DNA from: an uncultured Thermoplasmatales archaeon
GTDB taxonomy: Archaea; Thermoplasmatota; E2; DHVEG-1
DNA: 64,000 bases
Assembly (NCBI GenBank): GCA_964612945.1
Contig: CAZTFR010000001.1
Span: 24,418-88,417 of the forward strand
Reading direction: 5' to 3'
Within the stretch, counting starts at the first letter, position 1, and every line of letters starts with the position of its first letter. The translations under genes were made by a program, and so were the position numbers. Of this stretch, positions 11,584 to 35,526 are shown piece after piece. The notes beneath the pieces were generated by a model that was not told the origin of the DNA, did no database searches, and saw nothing but the letters and a program-made list of their open reading frames with translations.

Positions 11584-13248
11584 ATGAAATTAACAGAAAT
11601 GCATCACAGAACTCTTCTTTCAATTGGTAGAAAGATCCTTGACGGACTTCATATAAAAATACTTCTGTATAATTCATTGATTGCTATTGCTCAAGAACGA
11701 GCCCTATACAAAGTAGAAAAAATCAAATCAAATTCTTCCTCCCCCCGTCTCAATCCTGAGGGGAAAAAAATTATCGTCAATAGTGTCCATGGGACCTATC
11801 TCGAAGCTATTTATAAAGAGAGTGGAATGGCAAAAGCATTACAACTTCGAGGAAACAACGTAAAAATGCTTCTCTGCGGTCAAACATTGCAGGCATGTAC
11901 TGGTCTTTTTAATGAAACAGTGCCACCAAATAAAGGAATGTGTAGAAATTGTGTGTATTTCTCAAAAAAATTTTACACCATCGCCGAGTTACCCTTTGCA
12001 TATTATTCAGAATATATATCTACCGAGACTCTTCAAAAAATAAACGATATAGTAACCAATCTCACTGAAGAAGAAAGTCTTACGTATATCTATAAAGGAG
12101 TTCGTGTTGGCTTTCATACGCATAATTCACTATTGCGATTTTACAAAGGCAATGATCCCCAAGAAAGTAAATATGATTATACTTCTTTACTTCTAAAGCG
12201 TCTTACCAATGCAATGATTGCCACTGAAGTTGCTGCAAAAGTTGTTGAAAAGGAAAAACCAGATATTCTTCTCACATCCCATGGCTGTTATAGTTCCTGG
12301 GGGAGCTTTGCTGAATATTTTATGAATAAAGGAATTCGTACACGGGTATGGTATACAGGAATTAAGAAAAACTCGTTAATTTTTGATGTCAGTAGTCTCT
12401 CCGATCATTTTAAAATGTACTATGACCAACGCAAGAGAAAATCATTGTCAAAAAAAGAAGAAAAAGAACTGCAAACATTTCTTAAAAAAAGGAAAACAGG
12501 TGAACGAGGCGGAGGAGATACCTACTTCTTCGGATTTGAACAACCAAGCAGCAATCTTCAGCAACAATTTCACTTTAAAAAATATAATACGACCTACATG
12601 ATGTTTCCCAATATACCATGGGATGCTTCATTAGTAAATGCGAATCGAGCGTTTCAAGGAGTCTATGAATGGATTTCAGAGACCATCCAGCTGTTTATGA
12701 AGAAATCAGACCTGCAATTAATCATCAAAATACATCCTGCTGAGACAAAATATCATGATTCAAAGAAGACCGTTCTGGATTTTATACAAACGACATGCCC
12801 GCATCTTCCCCCTAATATTTCAATCATACCTCCACATACAAATCTTTCTGCCTACTCGCTTTTCCCCTATATCGATGTTGGATTGGTCTATAATGGGACT
12901 ATCGGCCTGGAATTATTGCTGCATGACATTCCGGTTATACTTGCAGGAAAGATACACTATTCAGACAGAGGACTCACCTATGATGTGACAAACAAAAAAG
13001 ACTATGCCACTTTTCTTTTCGATAAAAAGCTCTCAAGCTTATCAAAACAGAAAAAACAACTTCTTCATATCTATGCATATTTTCATTTTATCAAAAATTA
13101 CATACCCTACCCTATTCTTTACTTCAACAGTTTTCTCGATCATGGATGGAACATTACATCATTTGATGATCTTGCAAAAGGTAAAAATACATATATTGAT
13201 AAAATATGTGAATACATCTTGGAAAAAAATATTTATCAAGACTGGTAG
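11584..13248 (+). CDS. TagF/KpsC-like (Glyphos_transf/Capsule_synth-like) putative glycosyl- or nonulosonate transferase
   Basis: 554 aa with LIIKIHPAETKYHD (K-x-HP catalytic-His motif shared by TagF and KpsC/KpsS). Shares this motif with 21016.. and 29907.. paralogs. Confidence 0.4.
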   Translation: MKLTEMHHRTLLSIGRKILDGLHIKILLYNSLIAIAQERALYKVEKIKSNSSSPRLNPEGKKIIVNSVHGTYLEAIYKESGMAKALQLRGNNVKMLLCGQTLQACTGLFNETVPPNKGMCRNCVYFSKKFYTIAELPFAYYSEYISTETLQKINDIVTNLTEEESLTYIYKGVRVGFHTHNSLLRFYKGNDPQESKYDYTSLLLKRLTNAMIATEVAAKVVEKEKPDILLTSHGCYSSWGSFAEYFMNKGIRTRVWYTGIKKNSLIFDVSSLSDHFKMYYDQRKRKSLSKKEEKELQTFLKKRKTGERGGGDTYFFGFEQPSSNLQQQFHFKKYNTTYMMFPNIPWDASLVNANRAFQGVYEWISETIQLFMKKSDLQLIIKIHPAETKYHDSKKTVLDFIQTTCPHLPPNISIIPPHTNLSAYSLFPYIDVGLVYNGTIGLELLLHDIPVILAGKIHYSDRGLTYDVTNKKDYATFLFDKKLSSLSKQKKQLLHIYAYFHFIKNYIPYPILYFNSFLDHGWNITSFDDLAKGKNTYIDKICEYILEKNIYQDW

Positions 13249-13256
13249 CGTTAGAT

Positions 13257-14225
13257 ATGATGCAAACAAAGCCCCTGAATCTTCTTTTTTTTGGACTTGG
13301 CTCAATTGGGTTACGACATGCACAATTAATTCAAAATCATTTCAATCATCATCTCTTTGCATACCGAACTGGGAAAGGTGAAGAAAAAAAGCAGTTATCC
13401 CTCTCTGAGTTCACCGATCCGCAGGAAGCTTTTTCTGTTCATCCGGATATCGCCTTTATAACAAACCCAACCTATCTTCACGTGGATACGGCGATTTCCT
13501 GTGCAGAACATGATGTCTCTCTTTTTTTTGAAAAACCACTTTCCCACACTTTAGATAATCTTAATCTGCTGAAGACTCTTGTGAAAAACAAAAAGTTGTT
13601 TACCTATGTCGCCTATAATTTACGATTTCACCCTATTCTAATGAAACTAAGAGATCTTCTACAAGAAAAAGAGGTAGAATATTTTCGCGTATCATGTTGC
13701 TCGTATCTGCCGCATTGGCGCCCAAATCAAGACTATACAAAATCCTATAGCGCACAGAGTCTACTTGGAGGGGGAGCAATACTCGAACTCTCTCATGAAT
13801 TTGATTATATCTCTTGGATTTTTGGAAAAATCACCTCCCTTTCGGGATTCTGCGGCAAACAAAGTACGTTGAGTATTGATTGTGAGGATGTGGTTGACGC
13901 TCATATAACCTGTGAAAAAAATAGAGAGGGAAGTCTATATCTTAATCTATTCAGTTTTACAAATGAAAGGATGATACAAGTGTTTTGTTCTGATGTACAG
14001 TATGAAGCTGATTTAATAAAAAATACATTGACAACGGTATCCAATAAGGGAAAAAAACGGACCACAACCTTCAAGATAACTAGAAACGAACTGTATTTAA
14101 GACAGCTTCACTATGTTTTTAATCAATTTTTACAAAAGAGAAACGACACTATGAATGATATTGATGAGGCGAGTGCTCTTTTAAAAACTATCATAAAATT
14201 TAAGACAGAACAGTGTATCAAATAA
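13257..14225 (+). CDS. Gfo/Idh/MocA-family oxidoreductase
   Basis: LNLLFFGLGSIGLRH N-terminal Rossmann fold and the EKP motif (FFEKPLS). Confidence 0.6.
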   Translation: MMQTKPLNLLFFGLGSIGLRHAQLIQNHFNHHLFAYRTGKGEEKKQLSLSEFTDPQEAFSVHPDIAFITNPTYLHVDTAISCAEHDVSLFFEKPLSHTLDNLNLLKTLVKNKKLFTYVAYNLRFHPILMKLRDLLQEKEVEYFRVSCCSYLPHWRPNQDYTKSYSAQSLLGGGAILELSHEFDYISWIFGKITSLSGFCGKQSTLSIDCEDVVDAHITCEKNREGSLYLNLFSFTNERMIQVFCSDVQYEADLIKNTLTTVSNKGKKRTTTFKITRNELYLRQLHYVFNQFLQKRNDTMNDIDEASALLKTIIKFKTEQCIK

Positions 14226-14241
14226 AAAAAGGGGTTTTTCT

Positions 14242-14943
14242 ATGAATATACTGGGCACAATATGTGCACGGGGGGGTTCTAAAGGAGTCAAAAATAAAAA
14301 TATCCGTCTACTTAAGGGCAAACCACTGCTATCCTATACAATAGAGTATCTTAAGAAATGGGGAAAGGCATCGCATATAGTGTGTTCCACAGATTCACCA
14401 CAAATTGCAGAGATTGCGAAGGAATATGGTGCTGAAATACCCTGTTTACGACCACCGGAGCTGGCAACTGATACCGTCTCAAAACTTCTTGTCTTGCAGC
14501 ATTTAATTACCATTGCTCAAGAGCAAAAAAACATAACATATGATGTCGTCGTTGATATAGATCCAACGGCGCCGTTAAGAAAACAACACCACCTTGAGGA
14601 AGCGTTTCGTAAATTTCGAACAAGTGATGCTAATAATTTATATAGTGTATGCAAAGCTCGAAAAAACCCGTATTTCAACATGGTAGAAGTAGATACCAAA
14701 GGATACGCACATTTATCAAAAGAGAGCACAGTTGTCCGACGGCAGGATGCTCCCACGGTCTATGAGATGAATGCATCGATCTATATCTATGATGCTCGTT
14801 TCTTACTCTCTACTACAGCCCTTCATTCCGATAAAACAATCATTTATGAAATGCCTGCTATTTCATCCATAGATATTGATACAGAGCTGGATTTTTTCTT
14901 TATTGAATATTTATTAGAAAAAGAGGTGTTTACGTTTGACTAA
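14242..14943 (+). CDS. neuA: acylneuraminate cytidylyltransferase-like (CMP-nonulosonate synthetase)
   Basis: ILGTICARGGSKGVKNKNIRLLKGKPLLSYTI is the canonical CMP-NeuAc synthetase N-terminus. Confidence 0.75.
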   Translation: MNILGTICARGGSKGVKNKNIRLLKGKPLLSYTIEYLKKWGKASHIVCSTDSPQIAEIAKEYGAEIPCLRPPELATDTVSKLLVLQHLITIAQEQKNITYDVVVDIDPTAPLRKQHHLEEAFRKFRTSDANNLYSVCKARKNPYFNMVEVDTKGYAHLSKESTVVRRQDAPTVYEMNASIYIYDARFLLSTTALHSDKTIIYEMPAISSIDIDTELDFFFIEYLLEKEVFTFD

Positions 14944-15733
14944 GAAAATATTTCCCAACCGCTTTTTGTTAACTGATAAAATTGCACTAATCACTGGAGG
15001 TGCTGGACTTCTTGGCTCTGCTGCAGTTCAAGGCCTTGCAGAAGCACAGGCAACAGTGTACATTTTAGATACCGATAAGCATGCCAGTACGACAATTGTT
15101 GAAAAAGCTACAAACCAGGGACTCAACGTCAACTGGATGCCTTTTGATATCACCAGTACTGAATCGATCAAAAAGGGATTTAAGAAGATGTATGAAAAAG
15201 AAGATTCCATTGATATATTGGTGAATACTGCATACCCTCGAACTAAGGATTGGGGTGCTGCCTTTGAAGATATACGATATGATTCTTGGCGAAAAAATGT
15301 GGATATGCATATGAATGGATATGCTTTTTGTTGTCTTGAAGTTGCAAAATATATGAAACAACAAAAAACGGGCTGTCTCATCAATTTTGGATCTACCTAT
15401 GGGCTTGTTGGTCCTGATTTTTCGATTTATGAGGGAACGCAGATGACCATGCCGGCGGCATATGCTGCAATTAAAGGCGGTATTATAAATTTCACAAGAT
15501 ATCTTGCAACATATTTAGGGTCGGATGGCATTCGGGCTAATGTTATCTGTCCGGGTGGCATACGTGATAAACAACCTGCCGGTTTTATCAAAAAATATGA
15601 AGCGAAAACACCCCTTGGACGGATGGGTTCACCAGAGGATATTGCCGCCCCCGTTGTGTTTTTAGCATCAGATGCCGCATCGTATATTTCCGGTCATGTA
15701 TTAATGGTTGATGGCGGATGGACAGCATGGTAG
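14936..15733 (+). CDS. short-chain dehydrogenase/reductase (TTG start)
   Basis: IALITGGAGLLGSAA TGxxxGxG and YxxxK (YAAIKGG). Frame begins with TTG overlapping the upstream stop. Confidence 0.65.
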   Translation: MTKKIFPNRFLLTDKIALITGGAGLLGSAAVQGLAEAQATVYILDTDKHASTTIVEKATNQGLNVNWMPFDITSTESIKKGFKKMYEKEDSIDILVNTAYPRTKDWGAAFEDIRYDSWRKNVDMHMNGYAFCCLEVAKYMKQQKTGCLINFGSTYGLVGPDFSIYEGTQMTMPAAYAAIKGGIINFTRYLATYLGSDGIRANVICPGGIRDKQPAGFIKKYEAKTPLGRMGSPEDIAAPVVFLASDAASYISGHVLMVDGGWTAW

Positions 15734-16794
15734 AATCCTGTATTGATCCTATTACAATTGCAGATAAAAAGATTGGAACTAATCATCCTACTTTTATCAT
15801 AGCTGAGGCAGGAATTAATCATAATGGTGATATCACTCTTGCAAAGCAATTAATTGATGCTGCAGTAAAGATAAAAGCAGATGCAATTAAGTTTCAAACG
15901 TATCGGTCCAATGAGATTACCATTCCTTCTACGGAGGTTCCCGCATATATTAAAAATCAAAAAAGTGCCTCTCTAAAACAAATTGATCTGCTAAAAAAAT
16001 TTGAACTGAGTTATGAGGATTTTATCACCTTAAAAAGCTATTGTGACAAAAAGGATATTATTTTTTTATCAACTCCTCATGTGATGGATGCTGTTGATTT
16101 CCTCGATAGCATGATTTCTGCCTATAAGTTTGGCTCTGGTGATCTTACCAACCATCCCATGTTGGTCCATGCTGCTCGAAAACAAAAGCCTCTAATTCTT
16201 TCGACGGGTATGGCTACGCTTTCTGAGATTCAGGCGGCACTTTCCTCGATTCGTGTAACAGGTAATAATCAAATTGTACTTCTCCATTGTACCACACAAT
16301 ATCCCTGTCCACCGCAAGAGGTAAATCTTAAAGCTCTCCGTACTCTGCAAAAGCATGGGAACTGCTTAGTGGGATACTCAGATCATAGTCTGCATAGAAT
16401 GGTGCCTGTCGTTGCGGTGTCACTTGGTGCTGTCCTTATTGAAAAACATTTTACGCTTGATAGAACGTTTTTAGGTCCTGATCATCAAGCATCCTTTGAA
16501 CCTGCTGAATTTCAGCAAATGATACAAGATATCCGTGCTGTGGAGACCATTCTTGGTACGGATAGGAAAGAACCGACTTCTTCTGAAAAAAAAATTATGG
16601 CAGTTGTCCGAAAAAGTATTGTTGCAAAAAAAAACATAAGAAAAGGAACCATTCTTACAGAGGATGAATTGACCTTTAAACGACCCGGGATAGGAATCTC
16701 ACCAGCACAGATCTCTTCATTTATTGGAAAACGGGCAAAACAAGACATCCGTAAGAATGAGCTACTACAGTCTCATATGGTTGAAGAAGAATGA
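15718..16794 (+). CDS. neuB: N-acetylneuraminate synthase family (NeuB/LegI-like) with C-terminal SAF domain
   Basis: IIAEAGINHNGDITLAKQLIDAA and FQTY motifs. About 60 aa C-terminal SAF/antifreeze-like extension. Confidence 0.85.
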   Translation: MDSMVESCIDPITIADKKIGTNHPTFIIAEAGINHNGDITLAKQLIDAAVKIKADAIKFQTYRSNEITIPSTEVPAYIKNQKSASLKQIDLLKKFELSYEDFITLKSYCDKKDIIFLSTPHVMDAVDFLDSMISAYKFGSGDLTNHPMLVHAARKQKPLILSTGMATLSEIQAALSSIRVTGNNQIVLLHCTTQYPCPPQEVNLKALRTLQKHGNCLVGYSDHSLHRMVPVVAVSLGAVLIEKHFTLDRTFLGPDHQASFEPAEFQQMIQDIRAVETILGTDRKEPTSSEKKIMAVVRKSIVAKKNIRKGTILTEDELTFKRPGIGISPAQISSFIGKRAKQDIRKNELLQSHMVEEE

Positions 16795-17936
16795 GAACAA
16801 TAGCCGTAGTTACGGGAAGCCGATCAGAATATGGATATTTACGTCCTTTAATGAAAACAATAGAACAAGACTCTCAACTGACGCTACATCCCATCATAAC
16901 AGGAATGCATTTTCTTCCACCATTTCACAAAACACAAAAAGCAATCAAAAATGATTTTCCAGAGGCTATATCTATTCCTATGCCTTTGCAAGGTGATAAT
17001 CTATATGATATGGCACAATACCTTTCACAAGGAATTGATAATTTTGCAGCGTATCTCCATCAGTCTCCCCCTGACATTCTTGTCGTTTTAGGTGACCGCT
17101 TAGAGGCACTTGCTGCAGTGCTACCTGCCGCCCTTCTCAATATTCCCATCGCCCATATTAATGGAGGAGATGTTTCTGGAACTACTATTGATGAATCCAT
17201 TCGTCATGCCCTCACTAAATTTGCTCATATACATTTTGCTCATACGAAACAGAATGCAAAGAGAATCGAAAAGATGGGTGAAGAAAAAAACCGGATATTT
17301 GTCACCGGAGCACTCACCATTGATAACATACGACAAACAACCTTTCAGTCAAAAAAAACATTATTCAAACGATTTCATCTCGATCCCCAAAAAACAACTC
17401 TTTTAGTTGTTCATCACCCAATCACCACACTTGAAGATAAAGGCTACCAACAACTGACAGAGCTCATGGAGGTTATCACCACTCTAAAATATCAAACCAT
17501 ACTGCTCTATCCAAACTGCGATGCAGGGGGACAAAAATTCGTCAAACTTATTGATACCCTCAGCAGTCATCCCTTCATTTATTCATTAAATGCACTGCCC
17601 AATAACGAGTATCTAAATCTTTTAAAACATGTAGATATCATGCTAGGTAATTCAAGTAGCGGAATTATTGAGGCCCCCTATTTTCAAACCCCTGTTATAA
17701 ATATTGGATCACGACAACAAGGAAGAGCACGATCAGTAAATATTGTTGATGTCAAACCAGAAAAAGAAGAAATTCTCAAAGCAGTTCACTATGTCTTAAC
17801 AGATAAGGCCTTTCAAAAAAAGCTGAAGAGCTGTGAAAACATATTCGGAGATGGGCATGCCGCTCAAAAAATAGTAACTGTTTTAAAAACAATCAAACTC
17901 ACCCCGTCACTTATTCAAAAACAAATAACATACTAA
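16791..17936 (+). CDS. neuC: UDP-N-acetylglucosamine 2-epimerase (hydrolysing), NeuC/LegG-like
   Basis: IAVVTGSRSEYGYLRPLM N-terminus and HINGGDVSGT motif. ATGA overlap with neuB. Confidence 0.8.
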   Translation: MRTIAVVTGSRSEYGYLRPLMKTIEQDSQLTLHPIITGMHFLPPFHKTQKAIKNDFPEAISIPMPLQGDNLYDMAQYLSQGIDNFAAYLHQSPPDILVVLGDRLEALAAVLPAALLNIPIAHINGGDVSGTTIDESIRHALTKFAHIHFAHTKQNAKRIEKMGEEKNRIFVTGALTIDNIRQTTFQSKKTLFKRFHLDPQKTTLLVVHHPITTLEDKGYQQLTELMEVITTLKYQTILLYPNCDAGGQKFVKLIDTLSSHPFIYSLNALPNNEYLNLLKHVDIMLGNSSSGIIEAPYFQTPVINIGSRQQGRARSVNIVDVKPEKEEILKAVHYVLTDKAFQKKLKSCENIFGDGHAAQKIVTVLKTIKLTPSLIQKQITY

Positions 17937-17949
17937 GAGGGACAAAACT

Positions 17950-18357
17950 ATGAAGGAAAAACGATTTCATCACTGGCAAATGCCTGAAATTACAGAAAGG
18001 ACACTTCACCCGAAATACCATTTCCTCGTCCATCATGTACACAAGTTATCACTTGGTGAACAAACAGACATTGGAGCATTTACCTATATGAATGCAAAAT
18101 ATGGTATAAGCATTGAAAAAAATGTGCAAATCGGATCTCACTGTTCTTTATATTCAATTTCCACTATTGACAATAAAAAGGGCCCAATCACTATAAGAGA
18201 AAATGCCCGAATTGGAACGCATTCTACGATAATGCCGGGTGTTACAATTGGGAAAAACGCGATCGTTGGCGCCTACAGTTTTGTGACACAAGATATTCCT
18301 GACAATGTTGTTGCTCATGGAATACCTACAAAAATCATTAGGAGGAGAAAAGAATGA
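17950..18357 (+). CDS. left-handed beta-helix (hexapeptide) acetyltransferase, LegH/PglD-like
   Basis: Hexapeptide repeats (IGSHCSLYSIS, IGTHSTIMPGVTIGKNAIVGAYSFV). Confidence 0.7.
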   Translation: MKEKRFHHWQMPEITERTLHPKYHFLVHHVHKLSLGEQTDIGAFTYMNAKYGISIEKNVQIGSHCSLYSISTIDNKKGPITIRENARIGTHSTIMPGVTIGKNAIVGAYSFVTQDIPDNVVAHGIPTKIIRRRKE

Positions 18358-19511
18358 AATGGAAAATACCCCTTTTCAAATCCTATTGGGAAGAAGATGA
18401 CATCGAAGCTGTTGCAGCCGTGATTCGACGGGGCACCTATTGGGCAACAGGACCTGAGATAGAACAATTTGAAAAAGAAATCGCTGAATACATAGGAAGA
18501 GATTATTGTGTTAGCTTTAACTCAGGCACATCGGCACTGCATGCGATGCTTCTTGCATATGGCATAACATCGCGTGAAGTCATCGTTCCAACATTCACTT
18601 TTATTGCTACAGCAAATACCGTTCTTCTCGCTGGTGGACGACCCGTGTTTGCTGAATCAGAACCCCACTCTTTTGGTCTGGATGCCAACGATGTGAAAAA
18701 CAAGATTACAAAAAAAACAAAAGCTATAATGCCCATGTCTTTTGGAGGGCTTGTCTGCAAGGATATGAAAGCATTACAAGATCTTTGTGAAGATCATCAT
18801 CTTCTGCTTTTAGAGGATTCTGCACAATCTCTTGGATCATCACTAGAAAATCAACTTCTTGGTACCTTTGGAGAGGCCGCGATGTTTAGTTTCTGTCAAA
18901 ACAAAGTGATTACCACTGGGGAGGGGGGAGTGATTGTCACAGATTCTCAAAAAATTGCCGAAAAATTAAAACTCATCCGTTCCCATGGGCGGGTAGAAAC
19001 AACCCTTCAGGATTATTTTTCAACCACTAAAGATATGGATTATATACAACTTGGATATAACTATCGTATGCCCTCGATGATTGCGGCACTCGGATGCTCT
19101 CAGTTACAAAAAATTGAAAAAACAATTGCTATGAGACAGCAAAATGCATACTATTACACAAAAAATCTATCAGGACTTCCTAAGGTTATGCCACCATCTC
19201 CTCATACGAATCAGCGCCATGTCTATCAGATGTATACAATAAAATTTGATGATACACGATCACGCAATGCAGTACAAAATTCCCTTACCAAACACGGCAT
19301 TATGAGCAAAGTATATTTTGAACCCATTCATCTGAAAACGTACTATCGTAAAACATTTGGATACAAATCTGGTGATCTCCCACAGACTGAAGATTTGTCA
19401 AAACATGTTTTAACCCTGCCCATGTATCCAAATCTTAAAAAAGAAGAAATAGATAAAATAGTTCACTGCATACAGGTACCTCTTGGGGAGAATGCGAATG
19501 GAAATTCATGA
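18354..19511 (+). CDS. DegT/DnrJ/EryC1/StrS-family sugar aminotransferase (LegC/PglE-like)
   Basis: WATGPEIEQFEKE and the PLP-Lys region FSFCQNKVITTGEGG. Confidence 0.8.
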   Translation: MKWKIPLFKSYWEEDDIEAVAAVIRRGTYWATGPEIEQFEKEIAEYIGRDYCVSFNSGTSALHAMLLAYGITSREVIVPTFTFIATANTVLLAGGRPVFAESEPHSFGLDANDVKNKITKKTKAIMPMSFGGLVCKDMKALQDLCEDHHLLLLEDSAQSLGSSLENQLLGTFGEAAMFSFCQNKVITTGEGGVIVTDSQKIAEKLKLIRSHGRVETTLQDYFSTTKDMDYIQLGYNYRMPSMIAALGCSQLQKIEKTIAMRQQNAYYYTKNLSGLPKVMPPSPHTNQRHVYQMYTIKFDDTRSRNAVQNSLTKHGIMSKVYFEPIHLKTYYRKTFGYKSGDLPQTEDLSKHVLTLPMYPNLKKEEIDKIVHCIQVPLGENANGNS

Positions 19512-20943: not shown

Positions 20944-21015
20944 CCGGCAAAGCCTCTTCTCTTATCTTTCAAACTTACTATTTCATAAATTTATTTTCAT
21001 AAGCATTATATAAGA

Positions 21016-22506: not shown

Positions 22507-22514
22507 GTGGCACT

Positions 22515-23552
22515 ATGGCTGAAGAAATTAAAGTGGGAATTATCGGTTTTGGAAAAATGGGGAAGATTAGAAAAGATCTTATCGATAATTCTTCCTCGTT
22601 ACAACTTCAGGCGGTCTGTGATCCTCATCCGGAAACTAACGAGAATTCTCTTGACTGTCCTTTTTTTTCAGACTATCATGAGCTTTTAGAAAGAGATATT
22701 GATGCTGTGTTTATTGCCACACCAAACAAGTATACTCCCAACATTGTGATTGATTCTTTAAAGAAAAAGAAACATGTCTTTTGTGAGAAACCACCGGGTA
22801 GATCCATTGATGATGTAAAACGAATTATTGCGGTAGAACAAAGCGTTCCTGACAGGAAATTAAAGTTTGGGTTTAATCATCGATATCATGATAGTATTAT
22901 GGAAGCAGATGCGATAGTGAGAAGCGGACGATTGGGAAAGATACTATGGATTCGTGGTATCTATGGTAAGAGTGGGGGTGTTGGATTTGAACAACAATGG
23001 CGGAGTAATCCCACGATTGCAGGGGGCGGTATTCTCTTAGATCAAGGTATTCATATGATTGATCTTTGCCGCATGTTTTGTGGAGATTTTGATGAGGTAA
23101 AAAGTCTTGTTACGAATTCTCATTGGAATCTTGATGTAGAAAACGATGCTTTTGCCCTTCTGCGAAATAAAAAGAACCAGATTGCTATGATTCATTCATC
23201 TTCAACCCAATGGAAACATAAGTTTTCCCTTGAGATATCTCTTGATGAGGGCTACATTAACCTCTATGGTATTCTTTCCTCTACTCGTAGCTATGGGCAA
23301 GGTGAACAGCTGGTGTATGCCAAAAAACAATTTGAAGATGAGAGTTTTGCTATTGGTAACCCTCAGGAAAATGTCACCTATTTCAGCCATGATCGTTCAT
23401 GGGAGCGAGAAGTTGAGGATTTTGTCCGATGTATAAAAGAAGACCGTGCCGTTCAGACGGGCTCCTCACATGATGCACTCAAGGCGATGGAGCTTGTAAA
23501 TCAGATCTATAATGCTGATCAAAAGTGGAAAAAAGTGAAGGCTATATCATGA
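22515..23552 (+). CDS. Gfo/Idh/MocA-family oxidoreductase
   Basis: IKVGIIGFGKMGKIR Rossmann fold and the FCEKPPG motif. Confidence 0.7.
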   Translation: MAEEIKVGIIGFGKMGKIRKDLIDNSSSLQLQAVCDPHPETNENSLDCPFFSDYHELLERDIDAVFIATPNKYTPNIVIDSLKKKKHVFCEKPPGRSIDDVKRIIAVEQSVPDRKLKFGFNHRYHDSIMEADAIVRSGRLGKILWIRGIYGKSGGVGFEQQWRSNPTIAGGGILLDQGIHMIDLCRMFCGDFDEVKSLVTNSHWNLDVENDAFALLRNKKNQIAMIHSSSTQWKHKFSLEISLDEGYINLYGILSSTRSYGQGEQLVYAKKQFEDESFAIGNPQENVTYFSHDRSWEREVEDFVRCIKEDRAVQTGSSHDALKAMELVNQIYNADQKWKKVKAIS

Positions 23553-24580
23553 AACATGTTGTTGTGGTAAATAACATAAAACAGGCAGATATTAAACCCT
23601 ATAAATTATTCAATGATTTTCTTGCTGTTACAGAAAAGGAAGTCAAGCGAATTCTCATAGATAATCAACATCTCGTCGATGTAGTATGTCCTGCATGTCA
23701 GAGTGAGAAACGTGGTTTTGCGTTTGAAAAATTTGGGTTAACCTATCATGAATGTAGGCATTGTGGGACCTTGTACGTCTCACCGCGCCCTCCTGAAAAG
23801 GTAATCAATACGTTTTTCAAAGAATCACGCTCCATGGATTTCTGGAATGATACTATTGTAAAAAAAACAATACATGCGCGGGTTACCCATCTTGTACGAC
23901 CAGAGGTCTTATGGGTTGCCAATACAACTGAAAAATTTTTTACAAAACCAGCGACCTTTGTGGATATCAAGACAAGACATGCTGAGTTTCTTGAAGAAAT
24001 CCGGTCACTGAACCTCTTTGATCGTTATGTTGTAATAGATCCAGATAGAACAGTTCACCAGACGATTAACCAGAATACAGATTTTAATGTACTACCTGAC
24101 TCATTTTGGGAGATTCCTCCAAATACCGTTAAAGCACAAGCTATCACGAGTTTCTATGTGCTTGATCGCCTTTTTCAGCCAGAGCAGTTTCTAAAAAAGA
24201 TACAACCGATGCTTGCCGATAAGGGCTTGTTGTTCCTTGTTAGTTCTTCAAGTAGTGGTTTAGATCTTCGAGAGCTCTGGGATCGGGCGAAAACCATATT
24301 TCCACCAGAAAATATGAACATTTTTTCTGTGGAGGGAATAAAGACATTATTGGAAAACAATGGGTTTGAACTTCTTGAGTTAAGCACACCGGGTCAGTTG
24401 GATGTGGAATATATTAAGACCGCAATGAAAAACGAGTCAGATCTTCCCATCTCCCGGTTTATAGCTTATATGATCAAAAATCGTGATGAAGCCACTTTTC
24501 GCGCATTCCAAAATTTCCTACAGGAATATCAATTAAGTTCACATCTCCGCATTGTTGCGAGGAAGAAAAAGAATGAGTAA
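23525..24580 (+). CDS. NDP-sugar C-methyltransferase-like (zinc-ribbon N-domain plus class I SAM methyltransferase)
   Basis: CPACQS...x14...CRHCGTLYVSPRP zinc-binding N-domain. Architecture matches TylCIII/NovU-type sugar C-methyltransferases. Confidence 0.45.
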   Translation: MEKSEGYIMKHVVVVNNIKQADIKPYKLFNDFLAVTEKEVKRILIDNQHLVDVVCPACQSEKRGFAFEKFGLTYHECRHCGTLYVSPRPPEKVINTFFKESRSMDFWNDTIVKKTIHARVTHLVRPEVLWVANTTEKFFTKPATFVDIKTRHAEFLEEIRSLNLFDRYVVIDPDRTVHQTINQNTDFNVLPDSFWEIPPNTVKAQAITSFYVLDRLFQPEQFLKKIQPMLADKGLLFLVSSSSSGLDLRELWDRAKTIFPPENMNIFSVEGIKTLLENNGFELLELSTPGQLDVEYIKTAMKNESDLPISRFIAYMIKNRDEATFRAFQNFLQEYQLSSHLRIVARKKKNE

Positions 24581-25520
24581 AAAAATCCTAATATCTCCCA
24601 GTTCTTTTGGTACTTGTGGAAGTCAACCACTTGATCAGTTGAAAACCGCGGGATATCAAGCTCTTTTGAATACATTCAAAAGACGACTAACCGCTGATGA
24701 AGTACTTGAGTTGGGAGCCGGGTGTATCGGCATCATTGCAGGTGTAGAACCATTAAATGAAACCGTTATTGAAGGTCTTCCTCAGTTACAATGCATCAGT
24801 CGGTGTGGTGTAGGGATGGATAATATCGATCTTGAGAAGGCCCATGAGCATGGTGTTGTAGTCTGCAATACACCATATGGTCCTACCCGGGCGGTTGCTG
24901 AATTAACAGTCGGCCTCATTTTTGATGTGTTGCGTGGAATTTCCCGTAGAGACAGAAAAATTCGGCAGGGCCAATGGGATAAAAAGATGGGTTTTCTTCT
25001 TCAGGGAAAACAGGTAGGAATTATAGGGCTGGGGCGCATCGGAAGACTCGTGGGAGAGTTACTCTTGTGCCTCGGAGCTTGTGTTTATGGCTATGACATC
25101 AACCCTGATACTAGTTGGTTAAAAAAGCATAAAGTCCCTCTTATTCCCATGGAACAGCTTTTAAGAGAAAGCGATATCATCTGTGTACATACTTTCTATA
25201 CAAAAGGATCAGAATATTTACTTGGAAAAAAACAGCTTTCTATGATGAAAAAAGAGGCGATCCTTATCAATATGTCGCGCGGTGGTGTCGTCGATGAACA
25301 GGCATTATTTCAAAGATTACAATCCAATAAACTTTCAGGTGCGGCACTTGATGTCTTCGAACAAGAACCCTACAATGGTCCCCTAACAACACTTGATTCT
25401 GTTGTGATAACACCGCACATTGGATCCTATGCACGTGAGGCTCGGCTTCAAATGGAGCTTCAAGCCGTTCAGAATCTCGTGCATACACTTGAGAAAAAAT
25501 CCTCAGAAAATAAAAGATAA
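24552..25520 (+). CDS. D-isomer-specific 2-hydroxyacid dehydrogenase (SerA/PGDH-like)
   Basis: VGIIGLGRIGRLVGELL NAD-binding motif and the catalytic R/E/H region (ITPHIGSYAREAR). Confidence 0.7.
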   Translation: MLRGRKRMSKKILISPSSFGTCGSQPLDQLKTAGYQALLNTFKRRLTADEVLELGAGCIGIIAGVEPLNETVIEGLPQLQCISRCGVGMDNIDLEKAHEHGVVVCNTPYGPTRAVAELTVGLIFDVLRGISRRDRKIRQGQWDKKMGFLLQGKQVGIIGLGRIGRLVGELLLCLGACVYGYDINPDTSWLKKHKVPLIPMEQLLRESDIICVHTFYTKGSEYLLGKKQLSMMKKEAILINMSRGGVVDEQALFQRLQSNKLSGAALDVFEQEPYNGPLTTLDSVVITPHIGSYAREARLQMELQAVQNLVHTLEKKSSENKR

Positions 25521-25605
25521 AAATAAATGAATAATAGTATTATACATGAGTTGAATACGGAGTATTGCTCTATCAGTAGTGAGTAGAGGCGGAGGCAACA
25601 CTGGA

Positions 25606-26352
25606 ATGAATTTGGATTTTCATAAGAAAATTGTTTTGATCACAGGTGCCACACGAGGAATTGGAAAACAACTCGCACATGATTTTGAATCATCAGGAGC
25701 TCAGCTTATTCTAACTGGGACAAACAAAAAACAAATTCAAAAACTCAACACTAAACATAAGAATGATTCGAATAGAAGCTATGTGTGTGTTGATTTTCTT
25801 GACAGCGATTCTCGAGATACGTTCTTATCCTATATTAAAGCACAAAAAAAAATCGATGTCTGTGTAAACAATGCAGGAATCAACAGAGTAAATCCTATTT
25901 GGAATGCCAAAGCGAAAGATTGGGATGATATTGTTCAAGTAAATCTAACCATGCCCTATTTGATTTCTCGTGAGGTATCAATACTTATGAAGAAACAGAG
26001 ATATGGTCGCATAGTAAATATTGCTTCAATTTTTGGGGTGATAAGCCGGCAGCAGCGTTCGGTGTATACCTCTACGAAATCAGGATTACTTGGTATGACG
26101 ATGTCTATGGCACTTGATCTTGCCCCCTATAATGTTTTGGTGAATGCGGTTTCCCCCGGGTTTGTGCTAACGGATTTAACAAAAAAGATCCTTTCTAAGG
26201 CTGAAATGAGAGAGTTAGAAGATGAAATTCCTATGAGACGGATGGCTCAACCCCGTGATATTTCATCTGCTGTACTTTTCCTTGCAAGCGAGGTAAATTC
26301 GTATATTACCGGTAAAAATCTCATAGTTGACGGAGGATATGTTGATGTCTGA
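25606..26352 (+). CDS. short-chain dehydrogenase/reductase
   Basis: KIVLITGATRGIGKQLA and YTSTK (YxxxK). GGAGG about 10 nt upstream of the ATG at 25606. The ORF track starts earlier at 25579. Confidence 0.7.
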   Translation: MNLDFHKKIVLITGATRGIGKQLAHDFESSGAQLILTGTNKKQIQKLNTKHKNDSNRSYVCVDFLDSDSRDTFLSYIKAQKKIDVCVNNAGINRVNPIWNAKAKDWDDIVQVNLTMPYLISREVSILMKKQRYGRIVNIASIFGVISRQQRSVYTSTKSGLLGMTMSMALDLAPYNVLVNAVSPGFVLTDLTKKILSKAEMRELEDEIPMRRMAQPRDISSAVLFLASEVNSYITGKNLIVDGGYVDV

Positions 26353-27418
26353 AACGCTTTCGGTGAAATCAAATATTCGTGATTATTCGGTGTATTTTTC
26401 CACGAATTTCTCAGAAATCTTTTCTTCACTATCATTGCAGAAATCATTTTTTATTATCGATAAAAATGTGTTTTCTTTATATCGCAATCAACTTTCAGAA
26501 GTGATAGACACCGGGCGATTTGTTGCTGTTGAAGCTGTTGAACAGAACAAATCCCTTGAATATGTGAAACAATTAACTCGGCAGTTGTTGAGCAAAAATA
26601 TCAGAAAAAATCATACTTTAGTTGCCATTGGTGGTGGGATCATTCAGGATATCACTGGTTTTCTGGCAACTGTTTTGTTTCGTGGTGTTGAATGGGTTTT
26701 TTATCCCACCACATTACTTGCACAAAGTGATAGCTGTATTGGTAGTAAAACATCAATTAATGTTGATGAGTTCAAAAATCAGCTGGGCACGTTTTATCCA
26801 CCGGTGCGTATCATCCTGGATGTCGGTTTTTTACAAACCTTAAAACCTGCTGATATTACCTCAGGGCTTGGGGAGATTATTAAGGTTCATTTATTGGATG
26901 GCCCGCAGAGTCTTGCGTATATTTCTTCTCATTATTCACGTAAGGTTACAGATGTGTCGTTGTTTATGGATTTTATTCGACGGAGTCTTGCCATCAAAAA
27001 GAAGATTATTGAGCAAGATGAATATGATAGAGATTATCGAAATATTTTAAATTATGGTCATACATTTGGTCATGCAATCGAGTCAGTAACAGACTATGGA
27101 ATCTGTCATGGTCAGGCAGTAACCGTGGGGATGGATATGGCAAACTTTATTTCGATGGAGCAAGGATTTCTTGATGAATCGTGGTATACAAAGATGAAAG
27201 TCCCTCTTGTAAAGAATTATCCCGTGTATGATCTGACAGTAGAACAGCAACATCAGTTGATTTCAGCGTTGAAACGTGATAAAAAAAATATTGATGGTCA
27301 ACTTGTTGCCATTCTCACCGAAGGTCCGGGTAAGATGAAAAAAATTAAGATACCTTTTGATCAAACATTACGCGAGGTTCTTACCAAGTTTCAATCTCGT
27401 GTTGTGATGAATGTGTAA
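26327..27418 (+). CDS. 3-dehydroquinate synthase-like sugar-phosphate cyclase family protein
   Basis: LVAIGGGIIQDITGFLATVLFRGVEWVFYPTTLLAQSDSCIGSKTSIN matches the DHQS nucleotide/metal-binding core. YGHTFGHAIE His pair. Confidence 0.65.
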   Translation: MTEDMLMSETLSVKSNIRDYSVYFSTNFSEIFSSLSLQKSFFIIDKNVFSLYRNQLSEVIDTGRFVAVEAVEQNKSLEYVKQLTRQLLSKNIRKNHTLVAIGGGIIQDITGFLATVLFRGVEWVFYPTTLLAQSDSCIGSKTSINVDEFKNQLGTFYPPVRIILDVGFLQTLKPADITSGLGEIIKVHLLDGPQSLAYISSHYSRKVTDVSLFMDFIRRSLAIKKKIIEQDEYDRDYRNILNYGHTFGHAIESVTDYGICHGQAVTVGMDMANFISMEQGFLDESWYTKMKVPLVKNYPVYDLTVEQQHQLISALKRDKKNIDGQLVAILTEGPGKMKKIKIPFDQTLREVLTKFQSRVVMNV

Positions 27419-27438
27419 ACTTGTGAACAAAGGAAGGA

Positions 27439-28611
27439 TTGAGATCTATGGTACGTATCGTTGCGATGATTCCTGCCCGCTTGGAGAGTAAACGAATAAA
27501 AAATAAAAATTTACGTCTCCTCGATGGAAAGCCGTTGGTATGTCATGTCGCAGAAAAATGTAAGCAGGCTAAGGTGTTTGATGAGATTTATATCAACTCT
27601 GAGGCAGATGTGATTCAGAGCATTGCTGATGAGTATGGTGTAAAATTTTACAAGCGAGCGATGCATCTTGCTAGTGATGATGCCACAAATGACATGTTTG
27701 CCTTTGATTTTATAAAACATGTTGGATGTGACATTTTAATTCAGGTCAATCCGACGTCACCATTGATTTCTGTGGATGATATTCGACATTTTGTGACTAT
27801 GATGGTTGATGGAAACTATGATACATTGCATTCTGTAAAGGAAGAACAAATTGAAGCGGTGTATAATGGCACTCCGTTAAATTTTGATCCTAAAAAACCC
27901 ATGCCCCGATCTCAAGATCTGAAATCAGTGTTAGTGTTTTCCTCAGGTATCATGGGCTGGAAGGCAGACAATTATTATCATAACATGGACAAATATAACT
28001 GTGCTACCTATGGCGGTGATGGAAACATCGGATACTTTATTCTCAAAGGATTTTCCACTATTGATATCGATAATGAGGAGGATTTTCTGCTCGCTGAGGT
28101 AGTGGTGCAGTTTCAGAAAAAAGGGCGTCATCAGAAGGTAGCGTATTATAATCCAGATGATAGACAGAGGGTTCATGTTGAATCTGATGTTCCCAGCATT
28201 TTGAAAAAAGATGGTGTGAATACAAATGATTTATTTGATGCAAACCAGGAAATCGTCAATATCCCTGAAATTATACGGACCTTTCAGCAGAATCAATCGT
28301 GGAGTAAACGAATCATCAATACGGAAAATAATAGTGCAACCTTGATTTCTCAGATGCCTGGAGAAGGAAATAGACGACATTATCATGCAGATTGGAATGA
28401 ATGGTGGTATATTATTGATGGAACCTGGGAATGGGAAATTGAAGGAAAAATAAGACGTGTATCAAAAGGAGATGTTGTCTTTATTAAGAAGGGAAAAACA
28501 CATAAAGTAACTGCGGTAGGGGATGGTCCTGCGGTTCGGTTAGCAATAAGTAGAGAGGATGTTGATCATATCTATCCAGAAGAAAAAATAAATAAGACCC
28601 TACTCAAATAA
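27439..28611 (+). CDS. cytidylyltransferase (CMP-NeuAc synthetase-like N-domain) fused to C-terminal cupin
   Basis: N-terminus IVAMIPARLESKRIKNKNLRLLDGKPLV. C-terminal RRHYHADWNEWWYIIDGTWEWEI...GDVVFIKKGKTHKV cupin barrel. Confidence 0.65.
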   Translation: MRSMVRIVAMIPARLESKRIKNKNLRLLDGKPLVCHVAEKCKQAKVFDEIYINSEADVIQSIADEYGVKFYKRAMHLASDDATNDMFAFDFIKHVGCDILIQVNPTSPLISVDDIRHFVTMMVDGNYDTLHSVKEEQIEAVYNGTPLNFDPKKPMPRSQDLKSVLVFSSGIMGWKADNYYHNMDKYNCATYGGDGNIGYFILKGFSTIDIDNEEDFLLAEVVVQFQKKGRHQKVAYYNPDDRQRVHVESDVPSILKKDGVNTNDLFDANQEIVNIPEIIRTFQQNQSWSKRIINTENNSATLISQMPGEGNRRHYHADWNEWWYIIDGTWEWEIEGKIRRVSKGDVVFIKKGKTHKVTAVGDGPAVRLAISREDVDHIYPEEKINKTLLK

Positions 28612-28631
28612 CGGATACTTGTGTGTAATCA

Positions 28632-29894
28632 TTGGAGGAGTATATTTTGCATCGAAGTAGTATCTTTAATATTAGAATAGATTTCGAAAAAAGCCATGAT
28701 TCTTATCTGTATGATAAAAATCGGAAGAGATATTTCCTTGATTTCTTTGGACAATACTCTGCGCTTCCGTTAGGCTATAATCATAGAATATTTCAGGAAG
28801 AACACTTTCAAAAAACAATACAAAAAATCATTGGTGTAAAGGTAACCAATTGTGAAATCATCTCTGATGAGGCACGTGAGCTACTACAAAAATTTTCGAA
28901 TCATAAGGATATGAAAAACTATGAATATTTTCATTTTTCATGTACGGGTGCGCTTGCTGTTGAAGCAGCTTTAAAAACTGCTATGGATCAAAAGCATTCT
29001 TCTGATCCAAAAGTGATTAGTCTACGTGAGAGTTTTCATGGCATTAATGGCTATGGAGGTTTTGTGACCGATCGGTTCTACCCGGTGAGCAAACGGCTTG
29101 ACGGATTTCCAACGCTGAAATGGTATCAGATTCATAATCCTAAAGTACTGTACTCAAACAATACAATTGATACCGCTGCAACAGAGAAAGGTTTTTCAAC
29201 ATTCAAAAGAGAGCTTGACGAGGTCATAAAAAAGGAGGGAGGCGAAAAAATAGCAGCATTACTAATTGAACCAATACAGGCGACCTATGGCGATAATTAT
29301 TTCCCTGAGGACTTCTTTGTTTATGTCCGAGAGTTCTGTGATGAGCATCACATTGCATTAGTATTTGATGAAATTCAAACGGGGTTTGGTACAACTGGGA
29401 AAATGTGGTATTTTCAACATCTACCGGTAGAGCCTGATATTGTTGCCTTTGGTAAAAAAGCGCAAGTATCAGGTATTATGGCAAAAAAAGAGTTCGATAC
29501 GATTTTTGAACGCCCTATACGTCTCGAAGTCACATTTGATGGGGATCTCATCGACATGGTGCGTTGTACTACCATTCTTGACGCCTATAAGAAATTTCAT
29601 CTATTAGAAAACGCTCAACAGCGGGGACAGCAGCTTCTGAAAAGATTACAAGCAATTGACAGTATACAAAACGTTCGCGGGCTTGGTCATCTTCTCTGCT
29701 TTGATTTCTCTTCATCAAAAGAGCAGGATGCATTTGCACAGACGGCCTTTCACAATGGCTTGCTTTTCAACAAAACACGGGATGTCTCAATTCGTTTACG
29801 ACCAAATCTGAATCTCTCTTCAGAAGAAGTAGATGAAGGACTTCAAATTATTACCCGCTCATGTGCAAAACCACTTGTAACCTCTACTTCATAA
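28632..29894 (+). CDS. class-III PLP aminotransferase
   Basis: FDEIQTGFGTTGKMW and AFGKK (Schiff-base Lys). The frame begins with TTG. GGAGGAG plus an 8-nt spacer precedes a second in-frame TTG at 28650. Confidence 0.7.
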   Translation: MEEYILHRSSIFNIRIDFEKSHDSYLYDKNRKRYFLDFFGQYSALPLGYNHRIFQEEHFQKTIQKIIGVKVTNCEIISDEARELLQKFSNHKDMKNYEYFHFSCTGALAVEAALKTAMDQKHSSDPKVISLRESFHGINGYGGFVTDRFYPVSKRLDGFPTLKWYQIHNPKVLYSNNTIDTAATEKGFSTFKRELDEVIKKEGGEKIAALLIEPIQATYGDNYFPEDFFVYVREFCDEHHIALVFDEIQTGFGTTGKMWYFQHLPVEPDIVAFGKKAQVSGIMAKKEFDTIFERPIRLEVTFDGDLIDMVRCTTILDAYKKFHLLENAQQRGQQLLKRLQAIDSIQNVRGLGHLLCFDFSSSKEQDAFAQTAFHNGLLFNKTRDVSIRLRPNLNLSSEEVDEGLQIITRSCAKPLVTSTS

Positions 29895-29906
29895 GACAGG
29901 ATTCTC

Positions 29907-30998
29907 ATGATGCAGCAATCAAAAAAATATGTCTTTTTTGTCATCACTTTCGGCAGTATTTATGATCGGGTGCTTCCCTTAATTGAGGAAAAAAAAGAGA
30001 AGGGGGAAATTATTGTTGTTGCAACGACTGATCAGATTGAAGCGTTCTTTCGAAAATATACTGATTTTACAGTCATTCGAACCAAAGTTCATCCGGATCT
30101 TATCACGAGAAATACGAAATATCTCCTTCTTATTAATAGTATTAAAAGTAAAATTGAATACCGCCGTCTTTTCAAACATATTCAGGGTGCTGATGTCTAT
30201 TTTTGTAATGTTGGGTATGCCATGGTTATTTATAGTTACATAAAGAAATTGGGAAAAAACAATAGAGTTTTTTACTATGGAGATACACCTATTTCGCAAG
30301 ATCCCGCAATTAATAAATCTCTTCTTCAGTACACTGTAGAAAAAAGTGTCCGCACATTTCTTATGAGACAAGCTACAAAATGGCTTCTGGGGATACCAAC
30401 AATTGTGCGAACGAACATGAATATTCCCTTTTGGGTGTTGGACGAATCTTTTTTTGATACGGTTTTTGTAATTGATAAGTATGTTGGTGATAAATCATCA
30501 TTAAATAAATACGTTGGTAAAATTAAGGAACTTCAGGGGAAAAAGATTTTAGTGGCAACGGAGGATGCAGTCGCCTGTGGCAACATTGATGAGCCGAATT
30601 TTACAGAGTATATGAATCGTTTAAAGGATATACTTGATATGATTGCTCCGGGGCAGTATGCCCTTAAGCCGCATCCTCGTTTGGATAAATTATTTGGCGA
30701 TATGAAAAAAGTGGATGCGGTAATTCCACCTTATATTCCCTTTGAATTTGTCTTGAATCATAAATGGGAGAGTATTATTGGAATTAATTCATTAGCGCTT
30801 ATTCATTCTTCTTTGATGACTGATGCTCCTGTGTTTTCGATTATTGATGCAGTTAATTTCAAAGATAAAAAGGTTCAACAAATGTTTCGATCCTGGCTTT
30901 CGAAGGAATCAAAAGATGCCATTCGTTTTCCGTCTAGTCTTGATGAGTTAAAAGAGTCGTTACTTGAAATTTCGAAGAAAAAGGAGCAAGTACTATGA
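29907..30998 (+). CDS. TagF/KpsC-like putative transferase (paralog 3)
   Basis: ALKPHPRLDKLF (K-PHP-R) motif and the C-terminal GT-B-like half. Confidence 0.4.
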   Translation: MMQQSKKYVFFVITFGSIYDRVLPLIEEKKEKGEIIVVATTDQIEAFFRKYTDFTVIRTKVHPDLITRNTKYLLLINSIKSKIEYRRLFKHIQGADVYFCNVGYAMVIYSYIKKLGKNNRVFYYGDTPISQDPAINKSLLQYTVEKSVRTFLMRQATKWLLGIPTIVRTNMNIPFWVLDESFFDTVFVIDKYVGDKSSLNKYVGKIKELQGKKILVATEDAVACGNIDEPNFTEYMNRLKDILDMIAPGQYALKPHPRLDKLFGDMKKVDAVIPPYIPFEFVLNHKWESIIGINSLALIHSSLMTDAPVFSIIDAVNFKDKKVQQMFRSWLSKESKDAIRFPSSLDELKESLLEISKKKEQVL

Positions 30999-32487: not shown

Positions 32488-32657
32488 ATACATATCGGTA
32501 CACTCGTAAAAATCGATCTGAAAGATATCCTTCTTTAGCAGTGGTTGATATAATAATGAAAAGATTAAAAAGAGGATTCTTTATTTTCTGAATACCCGTG
32601 TTCTCCAAATTGAGAGGGGGAGTTGGGAAAAAAAAGAAAATATGAGGGAAGAAAAAA

Positions 32658-34764: not shown

Positions 34765-34781
34765 CAAAGGAGAGTTTAGCT

Positions 34782-35507: not shown

Positions 35508-35526
35508 CCCTGAGGTAGGCAGAGAC

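Follow-up and report, generated by a model that had tools for sequence, protein, structure and literature searches.

Clusters of genes for nonulosonic acid synthesis raise the question of which of their products transfer these acid sugars onto the surface glycan, and we considered it here for a 64,000-nucleotide stretch of DNA (the window) from an uncultured Thermoplasmatales archaeon (GenBank assembly GCA_964612945.1, contig CAZTFR010000001.1, positions 24,418 to 88,417). Three open reading frames (ORFs) on the forward strand, ORF1 (11584..13248; 554 amino acids), ORF2 (21016..22506; 496 amino acids) and ORF3 (29907..30998; 363 amino acids), each carry a K-x-H-P motif, found in their translations within the peptides LIIKIHPAETKY (ORF1), IWMKPHPRLV (ORF2) and ALKPHPRLD (ORF3), as had been reported in a preliminary description of the window made from the sequence alone. 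Our analysis points to three candidate transferases that would use donors linked to cytidine monophosphate (CMP) and place nonulosonic or related acid sugars onto a surface glycan, a reading that we hold with a probability of roughly two in three. ORF1 is a candidate of the KpsC/KpsS-like (Capsule_synth) type, ORF2 a candidate GT-B transferase with two histidines from a family without firm Pfam membership, and ORF3 a compact GT-B protein that resembles sialyltransferases, most closely those of glycosyltransferase (GT) family GT38.

The K-x-H-P motif (HP motif) occurred four times among the 55 ORFs of the window (17,501 amino acids) in comparison to 1.3 occurrences expected, and all four copies lie inside ORF1, ORF2 or ORF3. 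Within the respective families the His-Pro pair is invariant or nearly so, with H384/P385 of ORF1 present in 46/46 members, H351/P352 of ORF2 in 25/25 and H256 of ORF3 in 33/34. A chance motif was rejected on this restriction to the three ORFs and this conservation. In the AlphaFold models of both ORF2 and ORF3, the motif occupies an equivalent beta-alpha-beta-HP site within the C-terminal Rossmann domain. ORF3 holds two of the four copies, the second being a K-V-H-P-D at residues 60–64 of its N-terminal domain that is moderately conserved (H62 in 27/34 and P63 in 31/34 relatives). Previous studies showed that the histidine of the HP motif contacts the phosphate leaving as CMP in KpsC/WbbB (PMC10148158), TagF/TarL (PMC10901376) and MhPST/PmST1 (PMC5517516). 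The preliminary description took the catalytic His-Pro as shared by CDP-glycerol glycerophosphotransferases and KpsC/KpsS enzymes, and the K-V-H-P of KpsC does align with it, but the motif is also found in the GT38 and GT52 families and falls on a histidine of uridine diphosphate N-acetylglucosamine (UDP-GlcNAc) 2-epimerases.

Pairwise BLASTP among the three proteins gave nothing significant for any pair, the best being ORF2 and ORF3 with 11/23 identities around KPHPRL at a non-significant E of 0.095, and hhalign comparisons of the three narrow families aligned the strand-HP element each time with a probability of just 4–7%. An ORF2-family profile was then searched against 1.84 billion representative proteins, where 281 relatives were found at E ≤ 0.001, and ORF2 was aligned with 93 distant relatives to give a broad ORF2-superfamily profile (A4; 94 sequences). 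In hhalign, A4 matched the ORF3 family with 96% probability (E 4.7e-9; 93 columns; KPHPR on KPHPR) and the ORF1 family with 98% probability (E 1.8e-13; 248 columns; KPHPR on KIHP), a signal that is partly transitive because a few A4 members themselves match Capsule_synth or polyST. The HP motif was in register in both comparisons. Each of the three proteins has relatives of 50–60% identity in other genomes. Because the families are joined only by the broad A4 profile, with the HP motif in register, ORF1, ORF2 and ORF3 are, as judged from their profiles, remote homologues in one GT-B superfamily that make up three separate families and are not recent duplicates.

ORF1 matched Pfam Capsule_synth (PF05159) at 37.8 bits, above the cut-off of 20 (E 2e-9), over residues 331–472, and the majority of its 139 relatives carry the same domain. 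A profile of the ORF1 family gave weak matches to KpsC among PDB sequences (E 0.014–0.04), and a GT-B-like fold is probable for ORF1 from these profiles. The HP motif K382-I-H384-P385 (12727..12738) has K382 in 44/46 family members, and it is preceded by N343-I-P-W-D347 (12610..12624), the probable equivalent of QxxxD in KpsC, where W346 and the candidate nucleophile D347 are invariant (46/46) and position 343 is Asn in 35/46 and His in 9/46 members. In KpsC/WbbB, the Asp acts as nucleophile of a double displacement and the HP histidine protonates CMP (PMC10148158). The spacing of D347 to H384 is 37 residues in comparison to 34 in KpsC-N (peptide in PMC10148158). ORF1 has K-x-H-P in common with KpsC/KpsS (GT107) and KpsS1 (GT118), and its Asp is located, at similar spacing, four residues after an Asn where KpsC has Gln. 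ORF1 also retains a G-T-x-G-x-E element that aligns to Y-G-F-E of KpsC, corresponding to the G-x-E ribose-binding element of that enzyme. KpsS1 (GT118) of Acinetobacter baumannii is described in PMC12887879 as a pseudaminyltransferase and shows that a nonulosonic acid transferase is found in the Capsule_synth superfamily.

ORF1 differs from KpsC in several respects, being far longer at 554 amino acids with a Pfam match limited to residues 331–472, and having N in place of the Q of the QxxxD motif. A counterpart of the KpsC general-base Glu could not be located in ORF1, and E79, conserved in 34/46 members, is a mere candidate for it. The gene cluster that contains ORF1 appears archaeal and has no Kdo synthase in the window. 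A further difference is a four-cysteine cluster in the long N-terminal half of ORF1 (C98, C105, C120 and C123; 11875..11952), spaced C-x6-C-x14-C-x2-C over residues 98–123, that was absent from every KpsC alignment made. Each of these Cys is present in 96–98% of 46 family members, and together they possibly form a metal-binding, perhaps zinc-binding, N-terminal insertion. On these sequence comparisons ORF1 is a new and unusually long member of Capsule_synth. The public protein record of ORF1 (P0060) has 549 amino acids, as would be expected if translation began at M6 (11599).

The only Pfam match of ORF2 was Glyphos_transf (PF04464), at 18.9 bits and below the cut-off of 22.1, and its close relatives matched Capsule_synth in 12/25 and Glyphos_transf in 9/25 cases. 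Pfam matches were few across the wider family of 94 sequences (Glyphos_transf 12/94, best E 5.2e-14; Epimerase_2 8/94; Capsule_synth 7/94; polyST 2/94), and NCBIfam matches consisted of BFO_1060_trans in 36/94 (E ≤ 0.001, best 3.7e-29) and TIGR04396 in 15/94. ORF2 itself scored 20.4 bits against NCBIfam NF046086 (BFO_1060), below the cut-off of 200, with the weak match spanning the HP region. The AlphaFold model of ORF2 (predicted local distance difference test, pLDDT, 87) has a GT-B fold similar to TagF/TarL. Its true start is likely M17 (21064); the first 17 residues are unstructured in the model and M17 is conserved across the family.

Three conserved elements were identified in ORF2. P224-H225-G226-P227 (21685..21696) is invariant in the 25 close relatives, with H225 in 73/94 of the wider family; G275-D-P-R278-Y-D280 (21838..21855), the counterpart of the TagF-like G-Y-P-R-x-D linker, has G275 in 92/94 and R278 in 84/94; and the HP motif K349-P-H351-P352-R353 (22060..22074) is again invariant in 25/25, with H351 in 77/94. 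Among PDB sequences, the A4 profile matched the 2-epimerase 6vlb (E 6.7e-8, nearly full length), Cps3D (9.2e-7) and KpsC (8e-6). In these alignments the P-H-G of the ORF2 family falls on E-A-G of the epimerase, the G-x-P-R-x-D on ETGYPRID of the TagF-like polymerase Cps3D, and the K-P-H-P-R on both K-V-H-P of KpsC and H-L-N-P of the epimerase. H225, which occupies the position of W-H in TagF/TarL and of E-A-G in the epimerase, is thus a candidate catalytic base. In TarL, H300 is the base, stacked on W299, and H433 handles the leaving group, both being essential (PMC10901376). ORF2 matches this layout of two invariant catalytic histidines (H300/H433 in TarL; H444 and a second His in TagF), with H225 and H351 separated by 126 residues in comparison to 133 in TarL, where the equivalence of H225 comes from sequence alignment and not from superposition.

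Differences between ORF2 and the TagF/TarL/TagB enzymes were also found, as Pro takes the place of the Trp stacked against the catalytic His, the PF04464 score lies below the cut-off, and the genomic context of ORF2 is nonulosonic acid biosynthesis. A scan of 48 of the 55 window ORFs revealed no TagD-, TarI- or IspD-type gene for the synthesis of polyols linked to cytidine diphosphate (CDP). A second group of relatives comes from Tannerella forsythia, where Tanf_01245, TFUB4_00887 and BFO_1060 are TagB-like GT-B proteins of ~445 amino acids that have the HP motif and lie beside loci for CMP-pseudaminic acid (CMP-Pse) or CMP-legionaminic acid (CMP-Leg) (PMC5420450). Deletion of Tanf_01245 or TFUB4_00887 was previously demonstrated to remove the terminal Pse or Leg derivative from the O-glycan, and BFO_1060 was aligned with both (PMC5420450). 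ORF2 is not a member of the BFO_1060 family (20.4 bits) and the link is made through remote relatives; those of its close relatives that have a source name are archaeal, unlike the Tannerella enzymes. As in Tannerella, genes of the ORF2 family adjoin CMP-nonulosonate biosynthesis loci in the window and in four related loci (L002, L006, L007 and L008).

ORF3 had no match in Pfam (at E ≤ 1, PF07388 included) or NCBIfam, and among its relatives 7/34 matched PF07388 (best E 3.8e-10) and 1/34 matched GT52. Its AlphaFold model (pLDDT 90) is a GT-B protein, and the best structural match was a GT38 polysialyltransferase. The HP motif K254-P-H256-P257-R258 (30666..30680) follows the strand at residues 251–254 and is present in 31–33 of 34 sequences, and further conserved residues include E/Q280 and S295, an arrangement that recalls H291-P-K293, E323 and S339/T340 of MhPST (PMC5517516). 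A contiguous D/E-D/E-G motif, which provides the base of MhPST (E152-E153), was not found in the N-terminal domain of ORF3, where E27-E28 and E84 are conserved. The sole invariant Asp is located in the C-terminal domain, just past its first strand (D220; 30564..30566; 34/34), and may be a candidate base or nucleophile. ORF3 shares the HP motif with GT38 (PF07388; MhPST 5wc6), GT52 and GT80 (PmST1), and differs from them in having no Pfam match.

All three proteins had been described as TagF/KpsC-like with a GT-B-like C-terminal half, and this was only partly borne out. The fold was found in the models of ORF2 and ORF3 (pLDDT 87 and 90) and was indicated for ORF1 from profiles only; because both modelled proteins show Rossmann/GT-B folds around the HP motif, the placement of the motif in this fold class stands. 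Of the Pfam matches expected, that of ORF1 to PF05159 was above the cut-off, that of ORF2 to PF04464 was sub-threshold, and ORF3 gave none. For ORF2, a TagF/KpsC-like character is consistent with the weak Glyphos_transf and Capsule_synth matches of the protein and its relatives, but the score lies below the Pfam cut-off and the family is linked to BFO_1060, while ORF3 has the GT-B fold around its HP motif but is nearest to the GT38/GT52 sialyltransferases, which also bear it. Several searches were uninformative, as phmmer of ORF1, ORF2 and ORF3 singly against PDB sequences gave nothing meaningful, the narrow-family profiles of ORF2 and ORF3 gave chance matches to PDB, and phmmer of P0016, a relative with a PF07388 match, gave chance Mdm2 matches. 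No hydrophobic segment of transmembrane strength was predicted in ORF1, ORF2 or ORF3, and membrane-embedded enzymes were rejected, as the hydrophobic segments of all three fall below transmembrane level.

The genes surrounding the three ORFs were assigned from Pfam and NCBIfam matches and form three modules on the forward strand. Directly 3' of ORF1 is a legionaminic-acid-like module (13257..20943) that encodes, in order, a PtmF-like oxidoreductase, a CMP-cytidylyltransferase (14242–14943), a PtmA-like short-chain dehydrogenase/reductase (SDR), NeuB (15718–16794), NeuC (16791–17936), an acetyltransferase, an aminotransferase and a CBS-dehydratase. NeuB_NnaB (418.6 bits) and NeuC_NnaA (399.5 bits, cut-off 235.9) were above their NCBIfam cut-offs, and the PseF, PtmA, PseC/LegC and LegB matches of the module were below theirs. 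The module directly 3' of ORF2 (22515..29894) encodes an inositol-dehydrogenase-like oxidoreductase, a Methyltransf_23 methyltransferase, a phosphoglycerate-dehydrogenase-like enzyme, an SDR, an AroB-related cyclase (26327–27418), a cytidylyltransferase-cupin fusion (27439–28611) and a class-III aminotransferase. The AroB-related gene scored 453.5 bits (cut-off 400) against TIGR04425, the 'AroB-related putative sugar phosphate phospholyase (cyclizing)', and the gene order of the module recurs after ORF2 homologues in L002, L007 and L008. A literature search for dehydroquinate-synthase-like enzymes in nonulosonic acid pathways returned nothing, and no paper was found on the module downstream of ORF2.

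The module 3' of ORF3 (31036..36363) is syntenic with a locus of a Thermoplasmatales metagenome-assembled genome (MAG; L004) and consists of genes for a B12-radical S-adenosylmethionine (SAM) enzyme, a second NeuB without SAF domain (32658–33524), a LegC-like aminotransferase, a cytidylyltransferase (34782–35507) and a PtmA-like SDR. The aminotransferase ORF (33310–34764) overlaps the end of the second NeuB gene by ~200 bases with its Pfam match beginning at residue 89, and its real start is probably near 33550. A Wzx-type flippase gene (Polysacc_synt; PF13440, PF01943) follows on the minus strand (36684..38207), indicating that the region is a cluster for the assembly of a lipid-linked surface glycan. 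In total, the window holds three HP-motif enzymes, three CTP_transf_3 cytidylyltransferase genes and two NeuB genes.

The same association was sought in related loci (L002 to L011); L001 and L005 duplicate part of L004, several loci end at contig ends, and the named relatives are Thermoplasmatales and Methanophagales MAGs. In L002–L011 every family member lies within ~10 kb of genes of a nonulosonic or ulosonic acid pathway. CTP_transf_3 was found in all of these loci except L007, usually with NeuB and in L002 and L003 with a KdsA-like DAHP_synth_1, and L007, which ends at a contig end, showed solely the NeuC-, aminotransferase- and dehydratase-type genes of the pathway. L004 remains syntenic with the window through the flippase and an MMPL gene. 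An hmmsearch with four family profiles over all loci showed that the families co-occur, with ORF1 and ORF2 families in L006 and L008, ORF2 and ORF3 families in L002, an ORF2-superfamily member with the ORF3 family in L004 and L011, and two ORF1-type genes with one of the ORF2 superfamily in L010, from a Babeliales bacterium. The numbers of HP-motif enzymes and CTP_transf_3 genes per visible locus were (3,3), (2,2), (2,2), (2,2), (2,2), (1,1), (3,1) and (2,3), numbers that are suggestive in a small sample where several loci end at contig ends.

Three of these arrangements extend the association beyond the modules of the window. A Methanophagales homologue of ORF2 (41% identical) lies directly 3' of a pseudaminic-like NeuB cluster that has no AroB-like module, which speaks against a tie of the ORF2 family to that module. 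In one relative (L002, 11042–14220; L003, 4433–7611) the ORF3 homologue adjoins genes for a KdsA-like DAHP_synth_1, a radical SAM/SPASM protein, a KdsC-like phosphatase and CTP_transf_3, and not NeuB, so that the ORF3 family may also serve eight-carbon (Kdo-like) acid sugars. In L010 (JAIERW010000001.1), a tandem pair of ORF1-family genes (7983–11397) and an ORF2-superfamily gene (2304–3467) lie beside NeuB and CTP_transf_3, indicating that these enzyme families are found with nonulosonic acid clusters not only in the archaeal MAGs but also in bacteria.

According to the reading that we prefer, each of the three proteins would transfer an acid sugar taken from a CMP-linked donor to the growing surface glycan, its C-terminal Rossmann domain binding the cytidine nucleotide and the His of K-x-H-P stabilizing or protonating the leaving CMP phosphate. 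ORF1 would follow a double displacement of the KpsC/KpsS/KpsS1 type, where D347 attacks the donor to give a covalent sugar-enzyme adduct that is then resolved by the acceptor, retaining the configuration. ORF2 would act by direct displacement, the acceptor hydroxyl being activated by H225 while H351 deals with the departing CMP. ORF3 may act through H256 and a conserved acidic residue, for which D220 is the leading candidate, by an inverting mechanism of the sialyltransferase type or through an Asp adduct. The three CMP-type cytidylyltransferases of the cluster would supply the donors, at least two of which are NeuB-derived nonulosonic acids of legionaminic/pseudaminic type. From cytidylyltransferase type and conserved context we infer that the donors are CMP-nonulosonates or related CMP-acid sugars, and likewise infer how the residues act in catalysis, the stereochemical outcome and the match of each enzyme to its donor; this match does not follow from the order of the genes, as ORF2 is located at a module boundary. 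The preliminary description had offered ulosonic or nonulosonic acids and glycerol/ribitol phosphate as the transferred groups, and the former fits both the conserved gene context and the relatives named in the literature, while for the latter the ORFs scanned included none for the synthesis of CDP-glycerol or CDP-ribitol.

Several observations weigh against this reading. SpsB of Bacillus subtilis is a TagB-like protein with HP motifs whose gene neighbours a pathway for CMP-legionaminic acid, and yet it is not needed for the transfer of legionaminic acid (PMC7439481); adjacency together with an HP motif is therefore not proof of function. The window has just two NeuB genes for three transferases, and the closest solved structures of ORF2 are epimerases. 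The family-level signal of ORF3 is weak, as it has no family match and Foldseek against PDB gave only generic GT-B matches (template modelling score, TM, ~0.4), and some A4 members carry the Capsule_synth or polyST matches noted above.

The alternative that survives best, although we consider it unlikely, concerns ORF2, which could be a phosphotransferase of the TagF type that transfers an alcohol phosphate (polyol or cyclitol) from a CDP donor made by the module with the AroB-like and cytidylyltransferase-cupin genes. This would account for Glyphos_transf being both the sole Pfam match of ORF2 and the commonest one of its remote relatives, for the two-histidine layout and the G-x-P-R-x-D that aligned to a TagF-like polymerase, and for the recurrence of the GFO, methyltransferase, 2-hydroxyacid dehydrogenase, SDR, AroB-like and cytidylyltransferase genes after ORF2 homologues in L002, L007 and L008. 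However, the cytidylyltransferase beside ORF2 is of the CTP_transf_3 type (KdsB/NeuA/PseF), which produces CMP-acid sugars, and not of the TagD/TarI type, the Methanophagales homologue follows a NeuB cluster without the AroB-like module, and BFO_1060 is matched by three times as many remote relatives as Glyphos_transf (36/94 in comparison to 12/94).

Tentatively, and with still less expectation of being correct, the module downstream of ORF2 could make a CMP-sugar that is not NeuB-derived, maybe a carbocyclic (quinate-like) or rearranged amino-acid sugar, for which ORF2 would be the dedicated transferase. If true, a new family of glycosyltransferases would be defined, archaeal surface glycans would gain a new building block, and the cluster would use three unrelated-looking HP-motif enzymes to install as many chemically distinct acid sugars.

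It is improbable that one or more of the proteins, most likely ORF2, is instead a non-transferase such as a UDP-GlcNAc 2-epimerase (NeuC-like), a hydrolase or a silent scaffold. The nearly full-length match of A4 to the 2-epimerase 6vlb was its best among PDB sequences, Epimerase_2 is matched by 8/94 remote relatives, and the deletion of the similarly placed spsB had no effect on legionaminic acid transfer in B. subtilis. At the catalytic E-A-G site of the epimerase, however, ORF2 has P-H-G, which is the TagF/TarL arrangement, and a bona fide NeuC is already encoded at 16791–17936. Silent scaffolds are also disfavoured by the invariance of catalytic-type residues in each of the three families.

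Recent paralogy through duplication inside the cluster, the model implied when the three were called paralogous, can hardly be credited and was rejected, since the shared K-x-HP(R), strand and cluster stand against the absence of pairwise BLASTP similarity and the low hhalign probabilities of the narrow families, the close relatives of each protein in other genomes, the differing lengths and N-terminal halves, and the co-occurrence of the families as distinct genes in distant archaea and a Babeliales bacterium.

Upstream of ORF1, the window also holds genes for transferases of families GT2 and GT4 and genes of the GDP-mannose dehydratase/epimerase type. On the minus strand at 2997–6250, consecutive genes for a HAD phosphatase, a SIS_2 isomerase, a GHMP kinase and an epimerase/dehydratase look like a nucleotide-heptose pathway (GmhB/GmhA/HddA-like), and the glycan may thus also contain heptose. 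At ~9480–10543, the GDP-mannose 4,6-dehydratase ORF listed from 9692 misses the first ~60 profile positions, and its N-terminus runs on upstream in the same frame without an ATG, GTG or TTG before it, pointing to either an error in the sequence or a start codon that is non-canonical.

In summary, three CMP-dependent transferase candidates for nonulosonic or related acid sugars were identified in one archaeal cluster. HP-motif GT-B enzymes beside nonulosonic acid loci are already known from KpsS1 (GT118), the Tannerella enzymes and families GT38, GT52 and GT80. Few transferases are known for sialic-acid-like sugars besides sialic acid itself, the main examples being KpsS1 (GT118) and the Tannerella enzymes, and according to PMC6137143 none that acts on nonulosonic acids has been identified in archaea. 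The locus and its relatives supply three candidate families that repeatedly co-occur with nonulosonic acid pathways, of which those of ORF2 and ORF3, if they were characterized, would probably become new families in CAZy, and these enzymes may find use in the chemoenzymatic synthesis of legionaminic and pseudaminic acid glycoconjugates.

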